A stretch of DNA of 34,127 nucleotides from a virus. This document shows, in pieces, positions 2,572 to 34,127 of the stretch. Where the stretch lies: positions 1-34,127 of the IMG/VR virus record IMGVR_UViG_3300045988_034929. One strand, 5' to 3'. The notes under the pieces are model-generated. The model was given only the letters and a program-made list of their open reading frames with translations. It was not told the origin of the DNA and ran no database searches. Every line of letters begins with the position of its first letter. The stretch's first letter is position 1. The translations under genes and the position numbers were made by a program.

Positions 2572-2660
2572 AAATGTTAACTAACTGTTAACAGAATAGC
2601 TAAATGAGATTTATTTCTTAAATGGTGTTAACGCAATATACAACCTATCAGTATTTGCCG

Positions 2661-2668
2661 TATATTTG
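2661..2668 (+). promoter_or_regulatory. Bacteroidota-type -7 box TATATTTG that would drive transcription into hairpin element copy 1.
   Basis: Matches the TAnnTTTG consensus. The context ATACAACCTATNNGTATTTGCCGTATATTTG is conserved with 26556..26586. No clean TTG at -33. Confidence 0.5.
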
Positions 2669-2674
2669 TAATGT

Positions 2675-2885
2675 CAAAAGGGAACAAGGTTATTCTTTAC
2701 CGAAACTAAGAATACGAAACCTCCTCCAAAAGGAAAGATTAAAAAGTGAATGGAATTTAATCACCGGGTTTTCTTAAGACAAACAAAAACTAAGAGGTTG
2801 CTTTTTACCAAAACTAAGAGCACGATACCCGAAAGGGAAAGTTTGAAAAGTGAAAGGGATTCAAACACCAAATAGTTTTTTTAAA
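2675..2885 (+). ncRNA. Candidate structured RNA of about 210 nt containing two tandem P1-P2-P3 modules. Boundaries are approximate. It could instead be a 5' leader.
   Basis: Hairpins at 2691-2714, 2737-2762, 2799-2822 and 2841-2866, plus CCC-GAAA-GGG at 2828-2837. Loops are conserved and stems covary with copy 2. A T7 run lies at 2875-2881. Confidence 0.5.
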
Positions 2886-2902
2886 TAAAAAGGCAATAAT
2901 GG

Positions 2903-2960: not shown

Positions 2961-3128
2961 ATGAATGATAGAGCGGAAATAGTTAGAGTAAAAACATTCG
3001 GAAAGGTAGCTTTTCAAGTGAACATAATAAACTCCGAAACGGGATTGTACCGAAATAGTCTATCCAGAGGATTTGAAACAAGGAAAGAAGCTTTAGAATT
3101 TATATCAGATTACGGTTTAACAATTTAA
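2961..3128 (+). CDS. Hypothetical protein, 55 aa (MNDRAEIVRVKTFGK...).
   Basis: Manual translation; below the ORF-track size cutoff. Preceded by the conserved leader AATTTAAAAACTAAAGATT-ATG. Confidence 0.5.
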   Translation: MNDRAEIVRVKTFGKVAFQVNIINSETGLYRNSLSRGFETRKEALEFISDYGLTI

Positions 3129-3140
3129 AAACAAAAGATT

Positions 3141-3551
3141 ATGAAAAAGTTAGTAGTATTAGCAGTGTTAATTCTTACAAGTGTATCAATGTTTAGTCAG
3201 ATTACAAGCCAGGGTAAGCCGGACGTATTAAAGTCCTTCCGTATGGGCGTTTGCAAATTGGTTGATACCAATGGGGATATAACCATTGAGGCGCAAACGC
3301 GCGAGTCTGTAGGGTATATTATGAAAGTCTATTTAGGTACACCCGAGGAAGCGGCGGTAACGCTTGCAAGCCTTGCAGAATACAAGCCCGGAAAGGGCGA
3401 GACGGTCAACCTAAACAACCCAAGCAACAACGAGGCGTATTTCCAAAAGCTTACTGGCTCCTGGATAATCACAGAGAAGTTAACGGAGATTTTCAGTATC
3501 GCAGTGAGCCGCGGAGAGCTTAGGAAAATGGTTGAAGCGTTGGAAAATTAA
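3141..3551 (+). CDS. Hypothetical secreted or membrane-anchored protein with an N-terminal signal peptide.
   Basis: 136-aa ORF with a hydrophobic N-terminus (MKKLVVLAVLILTSVSMFSQ). Conserved leader upstream. Confidence 0.7.
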   Translation: MKKLVVLAVLILTSVSMFSQITSQGKPDVLKSFRMGVCKLVDTNGDITIEAQTRESVGYIMKVYLGTPEEAAVTLASLAEYKPGKGETVNLNNPSNNEAYFQKLTGSWIITEKLTEIFSIAVSRGELRKMVEALEN

Positions 3552-3591
3552 ATAAGTGTTTTTGTTATTACAATTTTAAAAAGGAAAGATT

Positions 3592-3795
3592 ATGAAAAGT
3601 GGAAATTTTATCGAGCTGACGTTCGTAGTTAAGGGTGAATTGCAAGTAGAGTTTATTAACGTTGAACACGTATCGCGTATTATGTACGTAGATGGTAAGC
3701 CGTTTATTGGTATGCTGGGACAGACCTACACGCGCCAACTTACGGAAACAAGCATGCAAGAACTAACAGAGTGTATTAACTTAGAAAACAATTAA
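3592..3795 (+). CDS. Hypothetical protein.
   Basis: 67-aa ORF with the conserved leader AATTTTAAAAAGGAAAGATT-ATG. The overlapping minus-strand ORF 3568..3759 is rejected. Confidence 0.6.
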   Translation: MKSGNFIELTFVVKGELQVEFINVEHVSRIMYVDGKPFIGMLGQTYTRQLTETSMQELTECINLENN

Positions 3796-4890: not shown

Positions 4891-5209
4891 AAAAGATTTA
4901 GAGCGTACTTTCTCCGAGAAGCTTAACCGAACAAAAAAAGTGTGGGTAATAAAACTATTATCCACCTTTATAAAAGGTTTGCCGGATAGAATGATACTTT
5001 GCCAGGGTGGTTACGTAGGCTTTGCCGAGATAAAGACCACCGGTAAGAAGCCAACTAAGATACAATCTCACATTCACGAGAAGTTAAGGGCCCTCGGCTT
5101 CACGGTATTTGTCATAGACGATTTGGAGAGCCGGGACAACGCGATAAGTTTCTTCTTAAGAAATGTTAAGGAAATAAACAACATACCGGGAAAAGGGTTA
5201 TCTTTGTAG
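4871..5209 (+). CDS. VRR-NUC domain nuclease.
   Basis: Motif GLPDRMIL...GYVGFAEIK (PD...ExK) followed by Q......L...G, as in VRR-NUC family proteins. Confidence 0.75.
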   Translation: MKEIISEKDLERTFSEKLNRTKKVWVIKLLSTFIKGLPDRMILCQGGYVGFAEIKTTGKKPTKIQSHIHEKLRALGFTVFVIDDLESRDNAISFFLRNVKEINNIPGKGLSL

Positions 5210-5482: not shown

Positions 5483-5659
5483 ATGGTAAACTATATCGAT
5501 TTAAAATTAAAATGTATCGCGGGTCACGCCGAGATAGTAATCAACGGTCAGCGCATCAAGTGCGCTGCCGATTATGATAGAGTAATAGGGCATATAACGC
5601 CGGCAGCTCTCCATGAGTTCAACTCGCAGTTATTAATGATAAGAGCAATGTTATGTTAG
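5483..5659 (+). CDS. Hypothetical protein, 58 aa.
   Basis: Manual translation (MVNYIDLKLKCIAGHAEIV...). Its stop overlaps the start of the HNH gene. Confidence 0.45.
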   Translation: MVNYIDLKLKCIAGHAEIVINGQRIKCAADYDRVIGHITPAALHEFNSQLLMIRAMLC

Positions 5660-6195
5660 AACTTAGATACGAAGAAGTAGCGAGGCTATTTACATACGAC
5701 CGGGAAACGGGCGTACTGTATTGGAGAATTAGAGACCGTAACACTATCCGGCGTAACTATGTTGCAGGCCCTTCTAAAGGAACTAAAGACGGGTATCGGC
5801 AGGTGAGTATCAAAGGAAAGATGTACATGGAGCACCGCATTATAATGATGCTTTGCTTTGGACATATCCCGGAGAACGCCGAGATAGACCATATAAACCA
5901 CGTAAGAAATGATAACAGATTGTGCAATCTTCGTTTCGTTACGATGTCAGAGAATAGGAGAAACCAATCAGTAAACAGCAAAAGCACCACGGGCGTTACT
6001 GGGGTGTATTTCTCAAAGACCAAAAAAAAGTATATAGCCCAAATCAGTGTAGACTGGGAAACCATATACCTTGGAATATTCGATACATTGGAAGAAGCCG
6101 CCGCCGCACGGGCGGAAGCCAATTTAAAATTTAAGTTTAATAATAACCACGGAAAAGGGAGGGCAGAATATGTTAGAAAGAAATCAAATGCATGA
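5653..6195 (+). CDS. HNH endonuclease with an AP2-type DNA-binding domain (free-standing homing endonuclease).
   Basis: HRIIM...IDHINHVRNDNRLCNLR...SENRRN (HNH) followed by TGVTGVY....KKYIAQI......LG.F.T.EEAA.AR (AP2). Paralog of 31491..31993. Confidence 0.85.
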   Translation: MLELRYEEVARLFTYDRETGVLYWRIRDRNTIRRNYVAGPSKGTKDGYRQVSIKGKMYMEHRIIMMLCFGHIPENAEIDHINHVRNDNRLCNLRFVTMSENRRNQSVNSKSTTGVTGVYFSKTKKKYIAQISVDWETIYLGIFDTLEEAAAARAEANLKFKFNNNHGKGRAEYVRKKSNA

Positions 6196-7558: not shown

Positions 7559-7704
7559 AAAAGTTAATAGCAGTTATCACAGTCCTACTCATATCGGTAG
7601 GCTGCACCGTAGTACAGAACGCAGCGGACAGCATACAACGTAATTTCAAGCTACAGCAATTAGAGTACGGGCTATCGCTGAAAGATAGTTTAATACTTAA
7701 ATGA
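7555..7704 (+). CDS. Small putative lipoprotein, 49 aa.
   Basis: Manual translation gives MKKLIAVITVLLISVGC..., a signal peptide followed by a lipobox-like cysteine. ATGA overlap with the SNF2 stop. Confidence 0.5.
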   Translation: MKKLIAVITVLLISVGCTVVQNAADSIQRNFKLQQLEYGLSLKDSLILK

Positions 7705-7714
7705 TGTTAACGAA

Positions 7715-7747
7715 AGAACCAACGTAACGGGAAAAACGTTATATTTG
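7715..7747 (+). promoter_or_regulatory. Phage promoter family member: AGAACC-N18-TTATATTTG, with GTTAAC 4 nt upstream.
   Basis: One of six similar sites. The -7 box matches TAnnTTTG. ATG at 7773. Confidence 0.6.
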
Positions 7748-7772
7748 TATCAACGATTTAAAAACAAAGATT

Positions 7773-8045
7773 ATGGAAAAGTATTCAAAAGCAGTTAGTG
7801 AGATGTACTCACAGTTTAATCAGAAAGAAGCCCACCCGTTGGAAAAGTACATAGGGAGATTAGCCCGATGCACCTGGGGCGGAATTTCGGAAGTAGTCGG
7901 GTATTCAGTTGACACCCTCGGGGGCGAGTACTTGATAGTAGGGGCTTTCTTGCCCGGCGGCTGGAATAACTTAAGTGTAGGCGATGTGGTATTCAAAGAG
8001 TGCGAAAGTTATTTGTATGTTAGGGTCAACGATTTAATAGATTAG
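7773..8045 (+). CDS. Hypothetical protein.
   Basis: 90-aa ORF directly downstream of the promoter and conserved leader. Confidence 0.7.
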   Translation: MEKYSKAVSEMYSQFNQKEAHPLEKYIGRLARCTWGGISEVVGYSVDTLGGEYLIVGAFLPGGWNNLSVGDVVFKECESYLYVRVNDLID

Positions 8046-9717: not shown

Positions 9718-9930
9718 TTAACCACACTTACACAGTAAAAAATCGCTACTGTGTCGTTTTTTGTACACTCTAACTCCTTATATTATAATATATTATATGT
9801 AATTACACAGATACACAGATAAAAAGGGGTTAAAACATTATTCTGGAGAAAAGTGTATTTTAGGGGGTATAAAATATACTATTCTCTATATTAAAGTTTA
9901 GAAAAAAAAGCGTGTATCTGTGTAAGTGCT
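9718..9930. repeat. Copy 1 of the duplicated ACACAG element (copy 2 at 26240..26466).
   Basis: Block 9718-9776 and block 9803-9847 are nearly identical to 26240-26299 and 26326-26370. A 14-bp perfect inverted repeat pairs 9803-9816 with 9912-9925. Confidence 0.85.
9730..9762 (+). terminator. Hairpin ACACAGTA-N9-TACTGTGT followed by T6. Either an intrinsic terminator or a palindromic operator.
   Basis: 8-bp perfect stem plus a T-tract. Identical copy at 26253..26285. Confidence 0.45.
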
Positions 9931-12990: not shown

Positions 12991-13021
12991 TTGTTTTCTC
13001 GTGGTTTACTTCGTACTTTTG
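12991..13021 (+). promoter_or_regulatory. Consensus promoter TTG-N20-TACTTTTG.
   Basis: Sequence match in the 67-bp gap before 13046, followed by the leader TTTAAAAACAAAAGAGC-ATG. Confidence 0.5.
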
Positions 13022-13045
13022 TGCACTGTTTAAAAACAAAAGAGC

Positions 13046-13393
13046 ATGAAAATCATTTGGAACAACTTTATCCCGGTTAAGGGCTTCAAAGCTATTAACC
13101 TATTCGGCGTCCTTTTCGCGCGCTGTAACGCGGTTATAAGCGAAACGACGTTAAGACACGAACACATTCACACGATGCAAATGCGTGAAATGCTGTACGT
13201 GCCGTTTTACTTGTGGTATGGTATCGAGTACGTTATTAAATTCATCGGTTGGAGCTTCGAGAAGAAGAATCCATATTACCCGAACGACAAGCCATATGAC
13301 CGCATGAGTTTTGAGAGGGAGGCATACGGCAACGAGCACGATGTGGACTACCCGAAGACAAGGAAACATTTTAGCTGGTTTAAGTATATTTAA
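13046..13393 (+). CDS. Small protein with an HExxH motif (putative zinc metallopeptidase-like).
   Basis: HEHIH motif at aa 38-42 of 115. Confidence 0.5.
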   Translation: MKIIWNNFIPVKGFKAINLFGVLFARCNAVISETTLRHEHIHTMQMREMLYVPFYLWYGIEYVIKFIGWSFEKKNPYYPNDKPYDRMSFEREAYGNEHDVDYPKTRKHFSWFKYI

Positions 13394-19065: not shown

Positions 19066-20037
19066 ATGAAATTTAGAAAACTTAGAATTATCCAAGCCGG
19101 GGTTACTACCAATTTTGGAGTACATGAGGGCAAGGAGTACCCGTTAGTCATTACGGAGACCGCAGTTCAAAGCGTTGTAACGCTCGGCAACCTAAAGCCT
19201 ATTCATTGCAGGCGTACCCATAATGGGGCAGATATGTTGGACGGGTATTTAGGAAAATTCACTAACTTCGTCTACGAGGACGGCGTAGCTTACGCAGATT
19301 TGGAATTATCCGAAGCCTTACAAGCCGCCTACCCGTCGGAGGCAAAATTCATCTCCGAGATGATAAAGAACGAACCCGACATGCTGGGTGTTTCGGTGGT
19401 AGGCATCAACAATCAGACATTAAACGGTGATGTGCTGGACGTTACCGAATTTTTTGAGTTATACACATGCGATTTGGTCGGGCTGCCAGCGGCCACCACA
19501 AGTCTATTTAATAATCAAAACGAAAAGAAGATGAACAAATTTTTTAGTTCTTTCGCTTCTCTATTCAAGAAGTCAAGCTTTGCAACCGAAACGGTAGAAA
19601 CCGTAGACGGCGCAAGTATCACTATTGAAGCGGCTGGCGAAATGATGGCTATCGGTGACAAGGTTTTCGATAGCGAAGGCAATGTCCACCCGGACGGCAA
19701 GGTAGAGGTTGCAGTAGAGGACGGTATTCTTGTTATCACCATTGCAAACGGTGTTATTGAAAACGTAGAAGCTAAGGTAGAAGCGGACTTAAAGGACAGC
19801 GAAGTAGAAATTAAAACCCCGGTTACCGCAGACGTGCCCGAAGAGTTTGCAAACCGTATGTCAGCTTTGGAAGCTTCAGTTACTGAACTTACCGCATCAC
19901 TGGAAGCTATGACGGCTCAATTTAACAGAGCGACACCGAAACCCGGCATACCGCCCGTTAACATGCCGAAGAAGAAAGAAACAAAATTATCAAAAGAGGC
20001 TGTAGCAGAAGCAGCTAAAAGATTTTACAACAAATAA
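19066..20037 (+). CDS. Putative prohead protease / scaffolding fusion protein.
   Basis: The N-terminal region (...IHCRRTHNG..MLDGYLGKF.NFVYEDGVAYADLEL) resembles HK97-type prohead protease. The C-terminus is acidic and coiled-coil. The internal ATG of track ORF 19009 is used. Confidence 0.5.
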   Translation: MKFRKLRIIQAGVTTNFGVHEGKEYPLVITETAVQSVVTLGNLKPIHCRRTHNGADMLDGYLGKFTNFVYEDGVAYADLELSEALQAAYPSEAKFISEMIKNEPDMLGVSVVGINNQTLNGDVLDVTEFFELYTCDLVGLPAATTSLFNNQNEKKMNKFFSSFASLFKKSSFATETVETVDGASITIEAAGEMMAIGDKVFDSEGNVHPDGKVEVAVEDGILVITIANGVIENVEAKVEADLKDSEVEIKTPVTADVPEEFANRMSALEASVTELTASLEAMTAQFNRATPKPGIPPVNMPKKKETKLSKEAVAEAAKRFYNK

Positions 20038-20053
20038 CTAAAAACAAAAGATT

Positions 20054-20998
20054 ATGGCTTTCACATTTACAGACCTTAACAAATTAAACCTCAACTCACT
20101 TAACGAGGTTATCTCTTTGACCGTCGGCCTTGCTGGTGAAATCTCACAAGGCATCACAGTAATGAACGGTATTCCTAACGGTACACCCGTCGTTTCCCTC
20201 ACCGCAGCCGACAAGGCTTTGCGTAAATCAGCAGGATGTAACGGTGAATACTTTTATAATAGCGTAGCTGACAAGGTTAAGTATTACCAGCACGCACCTA
20301 TCGAACTGCCTATTGAGATTTGCTTGCAAAGCTTGTGGGGTAAGATGGTAGCGAAGGGTATTAACCTGGATGACAATTTCTCTGAAACCGAATTGGCTGG
20401 TTTTATTCAGTCCGAGGTATTGAAGGTATTAGAGGCTGACTTGCTTCGTTTGGCTTGGTTGGACGGTAACGTATCGGTAGGAGCAACTGGTTACGGTATC
20501 TTCACTAACGGCGGTATTATCAAGCAGTACAAAGACAGCGCAATGGCTGAAAAAGTATTGGTTCTCACCACAGACGGCGTTCTCGCTGCATTGCGTGGTG
20601 CTATCGACGCACAACGTCCCGATACACTTGACAACTCCGAGTTCTTCGTTACGTCTAACGTTATGCGCTTGTATAAGAACTTGTTGCAGACACGCGATAA
20701 CAGTGTAGCGCAGTCCGATATCGTCGACGGCCGCCCGGTGTATTACTTCGAGGGTTACAAGATTAACGAGCTGAGACACGTTTCTAACGCTGCAACGGCT
20801 GATGGTTTGGACACCGCGTTTATCGCTTTCACTCCGAAAGACAACATTCAGATTGCCCTTGAAAGCGCTGGTACGGTTATCGCTCCGTTCATCCAGGACG
20901 CAAAGAGCCGTAACTACTACTCACAGACTTTGTTCGCGGCTGACGCTATGTTGGTAGCGCCCGAGAAATTGCAGTTGTGGTTAACTGCAAGAACATAA
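20054..20998 (+). CDS. Major capsid protein (putative, HK97-fold type).
   Basis: 314 aa. Follows the protease/scaffold gene and is followed by a strong terminator. Carries the conserved leader. Confidence 0.65.
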   Translation: MAFTFTDLNKLNLNSLNEVISLTVGLAGEISQGITVMNGIPNGTPVVSLTAADKALRKSAGCNGEYFYNSVADKVKYYQHAPIELPIEICLQSLWGKMVAKGINLDDNFSETELAGFIQSEVLKVLEADLLRLAWLDGNVSVGATGYGIFTNGGIIKQYKDSAMAEKVLVLTTDGVLAALRGAIDAQRPDTLDNSEFFVTSNVMRLYKNLLQTRDNSVAQSDIVDGRPVYYFEGYKINELRHVSNAATADGLDTAFIAFTPKDNIQIALESAGTVIAPFIQDAKSRNYYSQTLFAADAMLVAPEKLQLWLTART

Positions 20999-26239: not shown

Positions 26240-26466
26240 TTAACCACAGCTTACACAGTAAAAAATCGCTACTGTGTCGTTTTTTGTACACTCCTAACTA
26301 TTCATTATCAGCTACTTATCTCTATTTACACAGATACACAGATAAAAAGGGGTTAAAACATTATTCTGGAAAAAATAGCATTTACCACTATAGAACGGGC
26401 TGTAAAAACCACTATATCCGAAATGAAAGTTTATGAAAACATGTGTGTGTCTGTGTATGTGTAACG
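26240..26466. repeat. Copy 2 of the duplicated ACACAG element.
   Basis: Blocks 26240-26299 and 26326-26370 are nearly identical to copy 1. Hairpin plus T6 at 26253..26285. Imperfect (12/14) inverted partner at 26445-26458. Confidence 0.85.
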
Positions 26467-26578
26467 CCCGTCTCTGATTATCAGCACTTTAGCTCGCACA
26501 CGCACTTTCTTTACATCTTTTCACTTTTGATTAAGGTTTATTAGCACAAAAAGAGATACAACCTATTGGTATTTGCCG

Positions 26579-26586
26579 TATATTTG
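26579..26586 (+). promoter_or_regulatory. -7 box TATATTTG that would drive transcription into hairpin element copy 2.
   Basis: Same conserved context as 2661..2668. Confidence 0.5.
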
Positions 26587-26592
26587 CAATGT

Positions 26593-26800
26593 CAAAAGGA
26601 AACAAGGTTGTTCTTTACCGAAACTAAGAACACGATACCTTTAAAAGGAAAGTTTGAAAAGTGAATGGGATTCAGACACCGGGTTACCCAAAGACAAAGA
26701 AAAAACTAAGAGGTTGCTCTTTACCAAAACTAAGAGCACGACACCCGAAAGGGAAAGTTTGAAAAGTGAAAGGGATTCAAACACCGAATAGTTTTTTAAA
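26593..26800 (+). ncRNA. Candidate structured RNA of about 210 nt, second copy. Boundaries are approximate.
   Basis: Hairpins at 26609-26632, 26652-26677, 26715-26738 and 26757-26782. Short hairpins at 26638-26648 and 26744-26753. A T6 run lies at 26792-26797. Confidence 0.5.
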
Positions 26801-26840
26801 AAGAAAAGAGGTCACCAAGACATTAAACTGGAAATAACCG

Positions 26841-26899: not shown

Positions 26900-27124
26900 A
26901 TGAAAGCAATTGATTTAATTTTTAGCGAAACGCTGACCGCCGGTCAGTTCGAGATAAAGAGCCACGTATTAGTATTTATAGACGAGGCAGGCAACGAGTA
27001 TAGCGATACTTTTTCAGAGGTACGCCATAACGGAAGATTTGAGGAATACCAATACAACGGTATGGGCTATGTGCACATGCAGAACCTTTTAGAAGCTATT
27101 TTCTTAAATAAGGTTAACAAGTGA
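26900..27124 (+). CDS. Hypothetical protein.
   Basis: 74-aa ORF downstream of the promoter. Confidence 0.6.
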   Translation: MKAIDLIFSETLTAGQFEIKSHVLVFIDEAGNEYSDTFSEVRHNGRFEEYQYNGMGYVHMQNLLEAIFLNKVNK

Positions 27125-27154
27125 ACCAACGTATTTGCAAAAGCGTTATATTTG
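27122..27154 (+). promoter_or_regulatory. Promoter family member TGAACC-N18-TTATATTTG, with GTTAAC 3 nt upstream.
   Basis: Sequence match. ATG at 27181 with the conserved leader. Confidence 0.6.
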
Positions 27155-27180
27155 CATCAACAATTTAAAAAGATAAAGTT

Positions 27181-27456
27181 ATGGAAGAACAAAAGTTTAT
27201 TATCGAGGAAGTGAAACAGCATTTGCAGGCCAGTGCGAGAAAGAACAAATATCAAGTTATTGACGCAGTGCAGGAAATGCCGACGTTTGAAGGGTTTATA
27301 TTCTCTTATTATTCTCAAAGGCTGGACGGCGCCCAATTCCCCGTAGATGTTGAAGATATGTATATCAACTGTGACGAGTGGGAAGAGTTCTACAACGAGA
27401 CGGTAGTCGAGGTTGCCCAAGCCATTTTGGAAGCCGAACAAATCAAAGAAGCGTAA
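27181..27456 (+). CDS. Hypothetical acidic protein.
   Basis: 91-aa ORF. The overlapping minus-strand ORF is rejected. Confidence 0.65.
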   Translation: MEEQKFIIEEVKQHLQASARKNKYQVIDAVQEMPTFEGFIFSYYSQRLDGAQFPVDVEDMYINCDEWEEFYNETVVEVAQAILEAEQIKEA

Positions 27457-27488: not shown

Positions 27489-28091
27489 ATGAAGATTACA
27501 CCGTTAACAATCGATTTTGACGTTACAAACGCACAAGAAGTGGAATTTGTAAATGAACTCATGAACCGTCTATTTGGAAGCGCACCTCTTAAGGCTATGG
27601 CAGCGCCTACAGAAAGCCCCGTAACCAGTACAACCGTACCGACGTTTAGCGAACCTACGCAGACCGCTGCACCCGTACCGACGTTTAGCGAACCTACGCA
27701 GACCGCTGCACCCGTACCGGAAGCAAAGGAGGTGGCAGTAGCTATTGCAGAGGAAACAATAGCAGACGCTATCGCAGAAGTGAAAAAAGAAATTGGAAAA
27801 CCCGTGAAGGTTGAAAAGCCAAAGGCTGCAAAAGAAGCCCCACAAGCGACGATTGAACCCGAACCCGTACAGGCACCCACCAAAGAGGAGAAAGTCCCGG
27901 AAAAAGCCTCAAACGAGCCCCTAACGGCAAAGGACATGCAGGCGCTTATGATTGACTTAATGAAGTCCGGGAAAATCACGCGCCCTCAATTAACGGATAT
28001 TATGTTGGAGTTCGGCGGCGCGTCCCTTATGCGTATCAAGCCCGAAAAGTATGAGCTATTGAAACAACGTATTGAAACATATAACGATTAA
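27489..28091 (+). CDS. Hypothetical protein with a Pro/Thr/Ala-rich repeat linker and a Lys/Glu-rich region.
   Basis: 200-aa ORF containing a perfect VPTFSEPTQTAAP duplication. Confidence 0.7.
   Translation: MKITPLTIDFDVTNAQEVEFVNELMNRLFGSAPLKAMAAPTESPVTSTTVPTFSEPTQTAAPVPTFSEPTQTAAPVPEAKEVAVAIAEETIADAIAEVKKEIGKPVKVEKPKAAKEAPQATIEPEPVQAPTKEEKVPEKASNEPLTAKDMQALMIDLMKSGKITRPQLTDIMLEFGGASLMRIKPEKYELLKQRIETYND
27636..27713 (+). repeat. Perfect 39-bp tandem duplication (2 full copies plus 6 nt), in frame within the CDS.
   Basis: GTACCGACGTTTAGCGAACCTACGCAGACCGCTGCACCC occurs twice in a row. Confidence 0.95.
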
Positions 28092-28096
28092 AAAGA

Positions 28097-29275
28097 ATGA
28101 AAATACAAGTAGACCACACAAGTAGGGCACACGCCCTACTTTCCCCAAGTAGCTCGCACCGCTGGCTTAACTGCACGCCGTCCGCACGGTTAGAAGAACC
28201 CTACGAAAGCACGAGTAGCGCAGCATCAGAGGAGGGAACGGTAGCACATGAGTTGGCAGAGCACGCCATAGAAAAGTATTTGGCCGGGGAATACCTACCG
28301 CTATTGGACGAATTGCCCGTACCCCATGAGATACGCAACAACAAATACTACAGTTCAGAGATGGAACACTACGTAACCGACTACGTTTGCTACGTGTGCG
28401 ACATATACGAACTGGAGGAAGGTGCTAAAATGAGTATAGAGCGAAAGTTCGACTTAACCACATACGTACCCGAGTGTTTCGGTAGCTGCGATTGCGATAT
28501 AGTAGGCGATACGGTCCTAAACATCATAGATTTAAAATACGGTAAGGGTGTACAGGTAGATGCTGATGGGAATAGCCAATTAATGATGTACGCTATCGGG
28601 GTGCTTAACTCCCTAGAACCCTCGCACCGCTCAAAGATTGAAAAGGTACGTATGCACATCGCACAAGTACGTTTGGGCAATTACTCGGTGTTCGAGATGT
28701 CCGCACGGGATTTGACCCACTGGGCAATACACGTACTAAGACCTACGGCCGAGAAAGCATTTGCCGGACAAGGGGAAACCAAAGTAGGGGCGCACTGTAA
28801 GTTCTGCAAGTTTAAGGCGCAATGCCGGGCACAACGCGATGCACTGGTTAACGAGTTCGAGACCCACGGAGAAACCAAAGCCCTATCTCTGGAAGAAATC
28901 GGGGATATACTCAATAAGGCAGACATGTTTAGCGATTGGATATCATCAGTTAAACAGTTTGCGATGTCCGAAGCCTTAAGTGGTAAGCACGTGAACGGGT
29001 GGAAGCTCGTAGAAGGCAGGGCGGCCCGTGTCATTAAAGACGAAGCAGAAGCCTTAAAACGACTAACGGAGGCAGGTTTTGACCGGGAAACCCTTATTAA
29101 TACGAAGATAAAAGGCATCGGAGACCTGGAACGAACCGTGGGAAAGAGGCCGTTAACGGTTCTACTGGACGATGTAATAATTAAGCCCCGGGGCGCGCCA
29201 ACGCTCGCACCGGAAAGCGATAAAAGAGAACCGATACAGCCTACTTTAGATATGTTTGAGGAATTAAATTCATAA
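28097..29275 (+). CDS. PD-(D/E)XK (Cas4-like) nuclease of the DUF2800 family.
   Basis: N-terminal AHALLSPSSSHRWLNCTPS, EGTVAHELAE, D...DLKYGKG core, and a C-terminal cysteine cluster HCKFCKFKAQC. Confidence 0.8.
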   Translation: MKIQVDHTSRAHALLSPSSSHRWLNCTPSARLEEPYESTSSAASEEGTVAHELAEHAIEKYLAGEYLPLLDELPVPHEIRNNKYYSSEMEHYVTDYVCYVCDIYELEEGAKMSIERKFDLTTYVPECFGSCDCDIVGDTVLNIIDLKYGKGVQVDADGNSQLMMYAIGVLNSLEPSHRSKIEKVRMHIAQVRLGNYSVFEMSARDLTHWAIHVLRPTAEKAFAGQGETKVGAHCKFCKFKAQCRAQRDALVNEFETHGETKALSLEEIGDILNKADMFSDWISSVKQFAMSEALSGKHVNGWKLVEGRAARVIKDEAEALKRLTEAGFDRETLINTKIKGIGDLERTVGKRPLTVLLDDVIIKPRGAPTLAPESDKREPIQPTLDMFEELNS

Positions 29276-29289
29276 AAGAAGTTAATGAA

Positions 29290-29322
29290 AGAACCAACGT
29301 AACAAATTAGTTGTTATCTTTG
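29290..29322 (+). promoter_or_regulatory. Promoter family member AGAACC-N18-TTATCTTTG.
   Basis: Sequence match. The -7 box is embedded in the left arm and spacer of the 16-bp inverted repeat. Confidence 0.55.
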
Positions 29323-29367: not shown

Positions 29368-29685
29368 ATGAGTACATTTAAATTCAACCAGGGAACAATG
29401 AGTAACGAAGAGCTTGACAAACTAACAAAGTTTTGGAATGAGAATCAATTCCGAACATGGAGTAAATCAGAGATTGAAGGAAGTTCAAAGCGCATGCAAG
29501 CTCTTTTTGTAGCCCTTAAGGAAGTGACGGAAGTAGAGCTGAAAATCATTTTAAAAATGAATAGCTACGAGATTATGAAATACCCCATCAAGTCGAAAGA
29601 GTATATAATATGGACGGCTAACAAAAAGGACTTGGAATACGCTCTTTCAATAACCCCAGAGACTTTTAAAGTTAAACAAGGTTAA
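29368..29685 (+). CDS. Hypothetical protein.
   Basis: 105-aa ORF with the conserved leader. Confidence 0.65.
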   Translation: MSTFKFNQGTMSNEELDKLTKFWNENQFRTWSKSEIEGSSKRMQALFVALKEVTEVELKIILKMNSYEIMKYPIKSKEYIIWTANKKDLEYALSITPETFKVKQG

Positions 29686-29690
29686 CAGAG

Positions 29691-29722
29691 TGAACAACTT
29701 ACAGATTTATTTGTTATATTTG
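29691..29722 (+). promoter_or_regulatory. Promoter family member TGAACA-N17-TTATATTTG, with GTTAAC 4 nt upstream.
   Basis: Sequence match. ATG at 29783. Confidence 0.55.
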
Positions 29723-32112: not shown

Positions 32113-34127
32113 ATGAAGCATCTTTTTATCGATTTCGAGACATATAGTGAGACAGATATTAAAAGCGCTGGCAACTACAAGTATTGCGAGGATGAAAATT
32201 TTCAAATATTGTTGTGTGGTTACATGTGGGACACCGACACGGAGGTATCAATAATAGACCTTACAACCCCCAACGGGCGTACAGAGTTTAATGAGTTGTT
32301 TACGGCCGTAACCAATGACCCGGAAGTAATTATAGTATGCCACAATGCTACATTTGAGCGTATTTGTTTGCGCGAGTATGGGTTTGACATAAGCCCTATG
32401 CGTTTTTTCTGTACGGCTAACATGTCATTGTATTGCGGTATGCCCGCTTCACTCGAAGCCGTATCTAACATTCTGAACCTGGACAATAAGAAGAAGGGCA
32501 CGGGCAAAAATCTTATCCGTTACTTTTCAATTCCTTGCAAACCTACCAAAACAAACGGAGGGCGCACACGCAATCTGCCCGAACACGCCCCCGAGGACTG
32601 GGAGGAGTTCATCGATTACCTACGTTATGATGTGCTTTCAGAAAAGGAAATATTCGGTAAGCTGTCCCGGTTTGAATTCCCGGAAGAAGAACAACGCATT
32701 TATGCGGCAGACCAGCGCATAAACGATTACGGTATATTGGCTGACCTTGAGTTGGCACATGCCGCGCAGGACATGGACGAAGAATATAAAGCGCGCCTAA
32801 CCGAAAGAGCCGAAAAGGAATTCGGGTTAAGCTCCTTAAAGTCCATGCCGCAGCTTAAGGGCTTCATTAAAGAGCGTACGGGCGTGGTTATTGATTCGCT
32901 CAATAAGAATAGCATAGAAGAGGTGATAAAGACCGTAGCGAGCCTTAAAAACGTTACTGACGAGGATAAGCAAGCCGTGTTAGACGTTATAGACCTACGC
33001 AGGGAGATAGGTAAAACGTCTAATGCCAAATACACCGCCATACTGGCGAGTGCCGGACGGGGCAACCGTATTAGAGGTTTGTTCCGTTACTACGGGGCGA
33101 ACCGTACCGGCCGATGGGCTGGGCGCCTGGTCCAATTACAGAACCTACCGCAAAACCACATCGAAGACCTGGACGGGGCGCGATACCTGGCAAAAATGCA
33201 CGACCTGGATATGATGGAATTCATATATGACAAGCCTACGCATATACTATCACAGCTCATACGTACCGCGTTTATCGCCCCCGAAGGGTACACGTTTGCT
33301 GTAGCTGACTTCTCGGCGATTGAGGCACGTGTAATTGCCTGGGTTGCTAATGAACAATGGCGTTTAGACTTATTTAACGACCCGAAGGCTGATATATATT
33401 GCGCCTCGGCATCTAAAATGTTCGGTGTCCCGGTACACAAAGGCGATGACTTAAGGCAGCGCGGTAAGGTAGCGGAGCTTGCACTCGGATACGGCGGCGG
33501 CATTAACGCCCTTACTATAATGGATATTAAAAAGGCGTTAAAGGAAGAAGAAAAACCTCAAATATTGTCAAAATGGAGAGAAGCTAATAAAAAAATAGTA
33601 TCTTTGTGGCGTTCGTTAGAGGACAGTGCAAAACGGTGTATCGGAACAAGGCGCGAACAAGTTTATAGGATAGACGATGTTTCGAGTATTATTTTTCGAT
33701 ATGAAAGCGGCGCAATGACTATAGAGCTACCGAGCGGCAGGAAGTTGTTCTACCCATCGGCAAGAATGGGAAAACGTACTATCGAAGGCGTTAACGGCTC
33801 GTTTGAGGTTGAGGACATCTCGTATATGGGACAAGACCAAACGACTGGGAAGTGGGTTAAGCTAAACACCTACGGGGGCAAGTTAACCGAGAACGTTGTG
33901 CAGGCGATAGCCCGTGACTTGCTGGCGAATGCGATTTTCAAGGTATTCGATTTGGGCTTTAACATCGTTCTGCATGTGCATGATGAGATTGCCGCCGAGA
34001 TACCGAAGGACGGAAACGAAGAAAAGACGCTGCAAATAATGAGTGATGCCATGTGCAACGCCCCGAGTTGGGCAAAGGGCATACCATTAAGAGCAGCCGG
34101 ATATATTACTGATTATTACAAAAAAGA
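32113..34127 (+). CDS. Family A DNA polymerase with a 3'-5' exonuclease domain. Open at the window end; it continues to 101..103 of the duplicated start.
   Basis: Manual translation shows no stop codon. Exo motifs DFET, HNATFE and YLRYD. Pol motifs A DFSAIEARV, B RQRGKVAELALGYGGG and C HVHDEI. Absent from the ORF track only because there is no in-window stop. Confidence 0.95.
   Translation, partial: MKHLFIDFETYSETDIKSAGNYKYCEDENFQILLCGYMWDTDTEVSIIDLTTPNGRTEFNELFTAVTNDPEVIIVCHNATFERICLREYGFDISPMRFFCTANMSLYCGMPASLEAVSNILNLDNKKKGTGKNLIRYFSIPCKPTKTNGGRTRNLPEHAPEDWEEFIDYLRYDVLSEKEIFGKLSRFEFPEEEQRIYAADQRINDYGILADLELAHAAQDMDEEYKARLTERAEKEFGLSSLKSMPQLKGFIKERTGVVIDSLNKNSIEEVIKTVASLKNVTDEDKQAVLDVIDLRREIGKTSNAKYTAILASAGRGNRIRGLFRYYGANRTGRWAGRLVQLQNLPQNHIEDLDGARYLAKMHDLDMMEFIYDKPTHILSQLIRTAFIAPEGYTFAVADFSAIEARVIAWVANEQWRLDLFNDPKADIYCASASKMFGVPVHKGDDLRQRGKVAELALGYGGGINALTIMDIKKALKEEEKPQILSKWREANKKIVSLWRSLEDSAKRCIGTRREQVYRIDDVSSIIFRYESGAMTIELPSGRKLFYPSARMGKRTIEGVNGSFEVEDISYMGQDQTTGKWVKLNTYGGKLTENVVQAIARDLLANAIFKVFDLGFNIVLHVHDEIAAEIPKDGNEEKTLQIMSDAMCNAPSWAKGIPLRAAGYITDYYKK
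34029..34127. repeat. Second copy of the 99-bp terminal repeat.
   Basis: Identical to 1..99. Confidence 0.95.

Follow-up and report, generated by a model that had tools for sequence, protein, structure and literature searches.

A covarying four-way-junction RNA module carried as optional cargo by human-gut Bacteroides and Phocaeicola phages

Among the described systems closest to a repeated, structured RNA element in a phage genome are the putL and putR sites of phage HK022, which comprise two stem-loops and are required for early expression. Other systems that invite comparison are the purine-riboswitch-type "tuning-fork" aptamers (RF00167 and similar), phage decoys such as the pseudo-ToxI of phiTE (ToxI units being 36-nt pseudoknots) and Racr (repeats of about 30 nt), the RNase III sites R0.3, R0.5 and R1 of T7, which are single internal-loop hairpins between genes, and, in terms of topology, the tRNA cloverleaf. 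To our knowledge, hardly any work has addressed structured RNAs in gut Bacteroides phages, and we know of no classical Hfq, ProQ or CsrA RNA biology in the Bacteroidetes. Here, we describe an RNA module that occurs four times in IMG/VR virus record IMGVR_UViG_3300045988_034929 (positions 1 to 34,127; this whole stretch of 34,127 nt is hereafter called the window), within two segments named element A (2638-2890) and element B (26556-26810). The modules form a genuine structured RNA family, strongly covarying and apparently undescribed, whose occurrence is limited to a single clade of Bacteroides/Phocaeicola phages from the human gut.

Each module folds on its own into a + strand RNA domain of about 95-110 nt. 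It is made up of an outer closing stem of about 8-14 bp, a 3-bp GGU/ACC helix (P0b), two 7-bp hairpins (P1 and P3) with near-invariant loops of 10 nt (L1) and 12 nt (L3), and a purine-rich junction, NGANA-CC...GG-RAAA, containing a small variable hairpin (P2). An earlier note on this DNA, made from its letters alone, had described two similar segments free of open reading frames (ORFs), each with two tandem modules of three hairpins. Indeed, 226 of 258 alignment columns are identical between the segments (87.6%), all stem and loop strings quoted in that note are present where it placed them, and a covariance model built from 34 distinct modules returned exactly four matches in the window (2686-2766, 2794-2870, 26604-26681 and 26710-26786), all on the + strand at 96-103 bits, the next-best match reaching 14 bits. 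The repeat period of the modules is about 105 nt. About the first 35-40 nt of each segment lie outside the fold and belong to a promoter-like box. No ORF conserved between the two segments was found, only short ORFs being present; a coding reading was rejected, since these are not conserved between copies and indels of 1 and 3-4 nt in the P2 region break the frame. The four modules are as follows.

2672-2781, + strand: module A1 (proximal), seen in minimum-free-energy (MFE) and centroid folds, by covariation and at 96.1 bits; outer stems 2672-2675/2778-2781 and 2678-2685/2768-2775; P0b GGU 2688-2690 with ACC 2763-2765; P1 2691-2697/2708-2714; L1 2698-2707; P2 region 2722-2734; P3 2737-2743/2756-2762; L3 2744-2755.
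2785-2880, + strand: module A2 (distal), 100.3 bits, fold and covariation; outer stem AAAAACUA 2785-2792 with UAGUUUUU 2873-2880; P0b 2796-2798/2867-2869; P1 2799-2805/2816-2822; P2 2828-2830/2835-2837; P3 2841-2847/2860-2866; T-run 2876-2882.
26590-26696, + strand: module B1 (proximal), 102.3 bits, fold and covariation; outer stems 26590-26593/26693-26696 and 26598-26603/26683-26688; P0b 26606-26608/26678-26680; P1 26609-26615/26626-26632; P2 region 26638-26648; P3 26652-26658/26671-26677.
26700-26797, + strand: module B2 (distal), 102.9 bits, fold and covariation; outer stem 26700-26708/26789-26797; P0b 26712-26714/26783-26785; P1 26715-26721/26732-26738; P2 26744-26746/26751-26753; P3 26757-26763/26776-26782; T-run 26792-26797.

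Consensus folding of the first 34 modules with RNAalifold recovered P1 and P3 and, in addition, the GGU/ACC helix that had been missed in the earlier note; together with the outer stem, this helix closes a four-way junction, so that P1 and P3 stand as proposed but not as members of a set of three free hairpins. Single-sequence MFE and centroid folds of both elements likewise give two tandem closed four-way-junction domains each, whereas the reverse strand folds more poorly, with a poor centroid. In the 34-module alignment, 96.2% of the cells in these helices are paired, compared with 33-48% when the 3' partners are slid, and nine pairs show changes on both sides. A larger alignment of 87 distinct copies with flanks, drawn from 145 copies in all, gives 97% canonical pairing in P1 and 98% in P3 (5-67% with slid 3' partners), with double changes at five of the seven P1 positions and six of the seven P3 positions, which bears out the covarying stems. 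P0b is canonical throughout (100%), U-A being replaced by C-G in seven copies and G-C by C-G in two. The same helix pairs rank at the top of an unbiased mutual-information scan with average-product correction, which also joins L1 position 1 with position 10 (U-U in 71 copies, C-C in 15). P2 is weak: two of its pairs, both C-G, are invariant and hence uninformative on covariation, and the third pair is present in only 60% of the copies. The outer stem, finally, keeps a constant register across four flank types that are not related in sequence:

Bacteroides proximal: AAGGAAAC/GUUUUCUU
Bacteroides distal: AAAAACUA/UAGUUUUU
Phocaeicola proximal: GUCGG..GGGAG/..CCGAC
Phocaeicola distal: AUAUC..UCGG/CCGA..GAUAU

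Among the 87 copies, L1 C4 and L3 G9 form C-G in 73, U-G in 10 and U-A in 4 without a single mismatch, and the neighbouring L1 C3 and L3 G10 form C-G in 86 and C-A in one. Judged from these counts, L1 probably docks with its CC on the GG of L3, which would give a compact "tuning-fork" fold. In phages whose VapE proteins are only 58-59% identical, L1 is unchanged and L3 identical or altered by one substitution, while the stems differ but are compensated, which argues for selection on both fold and loops. The claim of the earlier note that this is a structured RNA with conserved loops and covarying stems is thus upheld, since substitutions in related phages preserve the pairing of P1 and P3.

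Several features favour RNA over DNA. All module copies lie on the gene strand, directly 3' of a promoter-like box; the core helices of the 87 copies contain 29 G-U cells versus 13 A-C cells; and the outermost stem shows wobble-only changes. A fold of single-stranded DNA (ssDNA) in place of RNA is hence disfavoured. The wider possibility of a DNA-level or selfish element, i.e. an origin or ssDNA initiation signal, a palindromic protein site or a repeat resembling a miniature inverted-repeat transposable element (MITE) and devoid of RNA function, draws on the position of site A next to the primase-helicase gene and of site B at the head of the replication module, on the variable copy number and on outer stems that resemble short terminal inverted repeats; moreover, plasmid single-strand origins also show covarying stems with conserved loops. 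Yet, apart from the tolerance of G-U above A-C, the P0 helix joins bases about 75 nt apart and the loops are asymmetric, no target-site duplication was found at the junctions, and the element is optional, unlike an essential origin. Furthermore, the inverted repeats of the module types have entirely different sequences and could not all be recognised by a single transposase, and the copies are restricted to two promoter-proximal sites and one orientation just past the promoter instead of being scattered. We therefore consider this explanation most improbable.

The promoter-like boxes of the window share the pattern CTTAAAnnnGTTAAC ... AACCTA/AACGTA ... TAnnTTTG, and TAnnTTTG is the Bacteroidetes promoter consensus. 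The following features concern transcription at the two sites.

2617-2668, + strand: promoter-like box A, with the upstream part CTTAAATGGTGTTAAC and the -7 box TATATTTG at 2661-2668.
26535-26586, + strand: promoter-like box B, with the -7 box TATATTTG at 26579-26586.
2617-2668, 5155-5206, 7696-7747, 26535-26586, 27103-27154, 29271-29322 and about 29671-29722, + strand: the seven promoter-like boxes, each just 5' of a gene start or of modules.
2898-2925, + strand: hairpin AAUGG-UGAACCUUUCUAAAGCUU-CCGUU between the modules and the first ORF (ATG at 2961), recognised by eye only.

From the match to the consensus we infer transcription from the TATATTTG box, with a predicted start for box A near 2672-2677; the outermost stem UGUC/GACA would accordingly begin only a few nucleotides from the 5' end. 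In most relatives the same box stands directly 5' of a start codon, and box B is kept in relatives without modules. The seven boxes probably mark early and middle transcription units and act as recombination linkers. At the other end, a U-run (T6-T7) follows both distal modules of the window, where the stem next to the run consists of CUA/UAG and further A-U pairs, the stable helices having ended 6 nt before it; among relatives, the tail of the last module is T5-T13 in Bacteroides phages and UUUUUCU after an unrelated closing stem in Phocaeicola phages. As to the hairpin at 2898-2925, its loop, (U)GAACCUUUCnAAAGC, is kept in two relatives (L050:5854-5878 and L106:5729-5757), with stems that are changed but paired (AAUGG/CCGUU in the window, AACGG/CCGUU in L106, GCGGC/GCCGC in L050), and in Phocaeicola phages a comparable unit stands between the two modules.

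A stem placed so close to the inferred transcription start could serve in RNA processing or stability, either as a 5' shield against 5'-end-dependent RNases or as an RNase III-type cleavage site in a long quasi-continuous stem, comparable to the repeated R sites of T7. The repetition of the element at the head of two transcription units fits such a function, as does a small hairpin, GGAAAC-AAAG-GUUUCC, that occupies the place of the module in site-B leaders without modules. For this purpose, however, a stem alone would suffice, leaving unexplained the 22 near-invariant loop nucleotides and the invariant junction in phages with 58%-identical replication proteins, and the element is missing from site A in most relatives. 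A role in processing or stability thus appears quite unlikely.

Searches for relatives all led to the same group of phages. By blastn against GenBank phages, 40 Bacteroides/Phocaeicola isolates match, with next to no annotation beneath the matches (two records read "hypothetical protein"). Pattern scans of IMG/VR returned the same clade of 33-38-kb phages, plus chance matches and one unrelated region of AAGGGAAA repeats, and a metagenome pattern scan gave human-gut contigs only, mostly of about 33 kb. For one 128-kb metagenome contig (L204) a bacterial context was considered and dismissed, as the contig belongs to the same Phocaeicola phage clade. Among 185,579 genomes, one per species, the single match to the module pattern is a 34-kb phage-like contig binned in a metagenome-assembled genome (MAG). 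A looser pattern of P3 only yielded no distant homologues in IMG/VR, but again the same clade, chance matches and the AAGGGAAA region. The latter, in three viral contigs of 17.6-39 kb (L244:8560-8700, L246 and L247), consists of non-coding repeats AAGGGAAA / TAAGGGAAA with a chance match to the P3 pattern; it resembles an iteron array and has no relation to the module.

In agreement with the earlier note, which had not recognised any known family, none of the 4227 covariance models of Rfam 15 matches anywhere in the window at gathering thresholds. At E<=10, only chance-level matches appear over 2550-2960 (best E=0.17), none covering a + strand module, and the relative L050 gave no family match either. 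A weak PreQ1-I match on the non-coding minus strand, located 3' of the modules with E=0.086 for L050 and E=9.6 for the window, was judged a low-complexity artefact of A-runs and U-runs. ARAGORN reported no tRNA or tmRNA gene in the window. A hammerhead ribozyme was likewise discarded: GAAA precedes P3, but CUGANGA is missing, a fourth helix occupies the would-be cleavage site, and Rfam is negative here as well. Neither does the module look like a base-pairing small RNA, as no convincing + strand target in the window was found for the complement of either L1 or L3. Literature searches found no description of this RNA. It may be contained, unnamed, in the large candidate-RNA catalogues PMC10690425 and PMC8040213; the first 200 of the 408 files of one of them gave no match. 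The GGA-containing L3 is only loosely like the in-vitro motif GUAGGAUA of RbpB (bioRxiv 10.1101/2021.04.27.441718), which we regard as a lead and not as evidence.

Within this clade of siphophages, the module is accessory cargo, present in 0-4 copies per genome at two hot spots, with 0, 1 or 2 copies at each. At site A, 13 of 69 related loci carry modules, most others having the promoter followed by a short leader and the start codon. At site B, 23 of 60 close loci (L119-L178), about 53 of which are long enough to judge, hold full modules, and two more (L143 and L145) hold decayed half-modules. At least 14 near-identical contigs of the clade (25-35 kb) match in neither of the whole-contig pattern scans. 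Some single modules are hybrids that combine the 5' flank of the proximal type with the 3' flank of the distal type, which shows unequal crossing-over. The stretch from promoter A to a conserved gene of 136 aa (putative lipoprotein) is a hypervariable slot across loci L050-L118 (about 5600-5900): it may be empty or contain one of at least ten unrelated small-ORF families (46-115 aa), modules, or a leader of about 170 nt, alone or alongside a module. Such a slot is typical of accessory or anti-defence hot spots. The window's own slot ORF of 55 aa (2961-3128) has no PHROG match.

The leader of about 170 nt (GUUGAAAGGAACUAAAGACC ... UCUUUAGAAACCUUACAAC, L050:5565-5745) is a second conserved structured RNA, absent from the window and also present in L001, L048, L053, L059, L065, L084, L087 and L106-L109. 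It folds with a closing stem and 4-5 hairpins, carries three (G/A)UUAAAU(G/U) motifs and has no Rfam match. In some relatives it takes the place of the proximal module; its 14 distinct copies vary too little for covariation analysis.

The genes that follow site A, those that follow site B and their counterparts in position among relatives show no relationship to one another. Moreover, in two loci (L065 and L084) a second complete promoter follows the RNA cassette and drives the next gene, so that the RNA need not belong to the leader of that gene. Both observations bear on a cis-acting attenuator or riboswitch, in which a small molecule or protein bound to the junction or the docked loops would stabilise the closing stem, whose 3' strand leads into a U-tract, and thereby tune read-through from the early promoter to the genes behind it. 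In every case, the module is placed between a promoter box and same-strand genes, its build is that of a tuning-fork-like aptamer (closing helix, parallel 7-bp hairpins, invariant and possibly kissing loops, purine-rich junction), tandem aptamers occur in some riboswitch classes, and a U-rich run follows the last module in Bacteroides and Phocaeicola phages alike. However, no downstream gene family is consistently linked to the module, two different operons are headed by the same one, and the extra promoter of the two loci just named stands between module and gene. Additionally, proximal and some single modules lack a U-run, no alternative (antiterminator) pairing was found, and no riboswitch family of Rfam matches. 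Cis-regulation of this type is therefore possible but doubtful.

The same distribution bears on processive antitermination as known from put, where the nascent RNA would bind the elongating host RNA polymerase in cis and confer resistance to terminators. Two loci per genome, each just 3' of an early-type promoter, and a folded RNA with conserved unpaired nucleotides are what one would expect, and tandem duplication would increase the chance of capture. Nevertheless, many near-identical phages lack the element at both sites and have the same downstream genes, which speaks against an essential role; the downstream operons show few terminator-like sites on their + strand, the fold is a four-way junction and not two hairpins, and a new promoter after the element, as in the two loci above, does not fit. 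Hence, we regard antitermination as very unlikely.

The explanation that we favour, with a probability of roughly 40%, is an early non-coding RNA, complete in itself, whose invariant loops and junction would capture a factor and which would thereby serve as a decoy in host takeover or counter-defence. According to this proposal, the modules would be made early as stable non-coding RNA, either as a discrete transcript ending at the U-run of the last module or as the 5' part of an early mRNA. The factor could be a small molecule or a protein of either host or phage. Most likely, the RNA would work as such a decoy and be functionally exchangeable for the small early proteins that the slot otherwise encodes. 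A factor-binding decoy is favoured because the module swaps with small ORFs, heads unrelated genes and may have a promoter between itself and the next gene, and because its dosage varies and the last module ends in a closing stem and U-run.

Several points weigh against this proposal. The decoy idea is drawn only from the cargo-like distribution, and no RNA-binding protein encoded near the modules was found. In four loci (L003, L016, L233 and L242) one module stands between promoter and start codon with no other promoter, an arrangement that fits a cis-regulatory leader equally well. The stem at the U-run is weak (A-U/CUA) and thus no canonical terminator, and a terminator scan had no match there. 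The substitutions in the kissing pairs between L1 and L3 come from one lineage. Finally, mimicry of a whole host RNA was rejected in its simple form: the only match in the genome collection is the phage-like contig in a MAG, and the lack of a host counterpart in that pattern scan argues against it. In a more far-reaching version, which we consider unlikely, the module would be an RNA-only counter-defence or takeover cargo, a compact aptamer-like four-way junction, often in tandem, that ties up an immune protein or a signalling nucleotide of the host and is exchanged among gut Bacteroides phages in the hypervariable early slot that also takes small anti-defence-like proteins; a new ligand-sensing or self-cleaving class would be less likely.

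Regarding the genomic setting, bases 1-99 of the window are an exact direct repeat of 34029-34127 (99 nt), which marks the window as a phage genome of about 34,028 bp that is either circularly closed or terminally redundant; a DNA polymerase I gene apparently spans the junction of the ends. Essentially all genes lie on the + strand, in an order syntenic with the Bacteroides uniformis siphophage EMB1. Element A is located 3' of a VapE-like primase-helicase gene (108-2546) and 5' of small ORFs, and element B after the last late gene and a terminator-like hairpin, before the early replication genes. Upstream of element B, an identical 44-nt terminator-like hairpin, CACAGTAAAAAATCGCTACTGTG, followed by a T-run, occurs in both 9727-9860 and 26250-26383; about 20 nt past each copy lies a 68-nt segment, TTACACAGATACACAGATAAAAAGGGGTTAAAAC..., that is 90% identical between the two regions. 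These pairs flank the late gene block (structural and lysis genes) and may represent shared regulatory or late-promoter regions. The long non-coding region 5' of promoter B also contains a TG-rich tract, ATGTGTGTGTCTGTGTATGTGT, at 26441-26466, and a similar GTGTG/CTGTG-rich stretch is kept in relatives (L120, L130). A conserved translation-start region, AACAATTTAAAAACnAAAGATTATGAA, precedes many genes (2939-2968, 3119-3148, 3570-3599, 7749-7779, 13021-13051, 20032-20061 and 27156-27188); it is A-rich and without a Shine-Dalgarno sequence, as expected of Bacteroidetes hosts. Two tandem 39-nt units, 90% identical, at 27624-27701 lie within a 200-aa ORF (27489-28091) and encode an in-frame 13-residue protein repeat.

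The module thus represents a well-supported fold outside Rfam that is optional cargo of cultivable phages (EMB1/EMB2; BU, BV, BD and BM isolates). As natural variants with 0, 1, 2 or 4 copies exist, its function is directly testable by comparison of isolates. If a decoy, sensor or catalytic role is borne out, phages and their hosts in the human gut would be in conflict through an RNA-based strategy as well; even if they are no more than leader or stability elements, the modules mark early transcription units and a recombination hot spot of the clade.

Returning to the known systems, put, purine aptamers, phage decoys, T7 sites and tRNA each differ from the module in at least one defining feature. 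With the put sites of HK022, the modules share two copies per genome, each just past an early promoter, a folded nascent RNA with conserved unpaired nucleotides and the lack of an evident dedicated protein; in contrast, the module is a closed four-way junction, often in tandem, without sequence relation to put, and is missing from many near-identical phages. The T7 RNase III sites are likewise repeated structured elements of early transcripts with conserved unpaired nucleotides and variable stems, whereas the modules are branched, have conserved terminal loops, lie at the 5' end of the transcript and are optional. The phage decoys resemble the modules as promoter-driven, non-coding tandem RNAs in accessory regions whose copy number varies among close relatives; however, the module is a four-way junction of about 100 nt, and while ToxI-like arrays consist of repeats of about 34-45 nt that adjoin or mimic a toxin-linked repeat array of the host, no toxin-like gene adjoins the module, and the pattern scan of the 185,579 genomes gave no partner toxin or Cas gene. 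In topology, the module recalls a tRNA cloverleaf, with four helices, a third hairpin whose 3' strand continues into the closing helix, a 3-4-nt linker at the position of the "variable loop" and loops of the first and third hairpins that may dock; yet its stems have 7 bp instead of 4 or 5, the "anticodon arm" only 2-3 bp, and T-loop or D-loop consensus and CCA are missing. Compared to purine-type aptamers, the module adds a mini-hairpin in the junction, which makes it four-way, has longer loops (10 and 12 nt) and comes without Rfam match, linked gene function or evident expression platform beyond the U-run; what the two have in common is a closing helix, two side-by-side hairpins of about 7 bp and conserved loops and junction, with module loops that may likewise dock through two G-C pairs.

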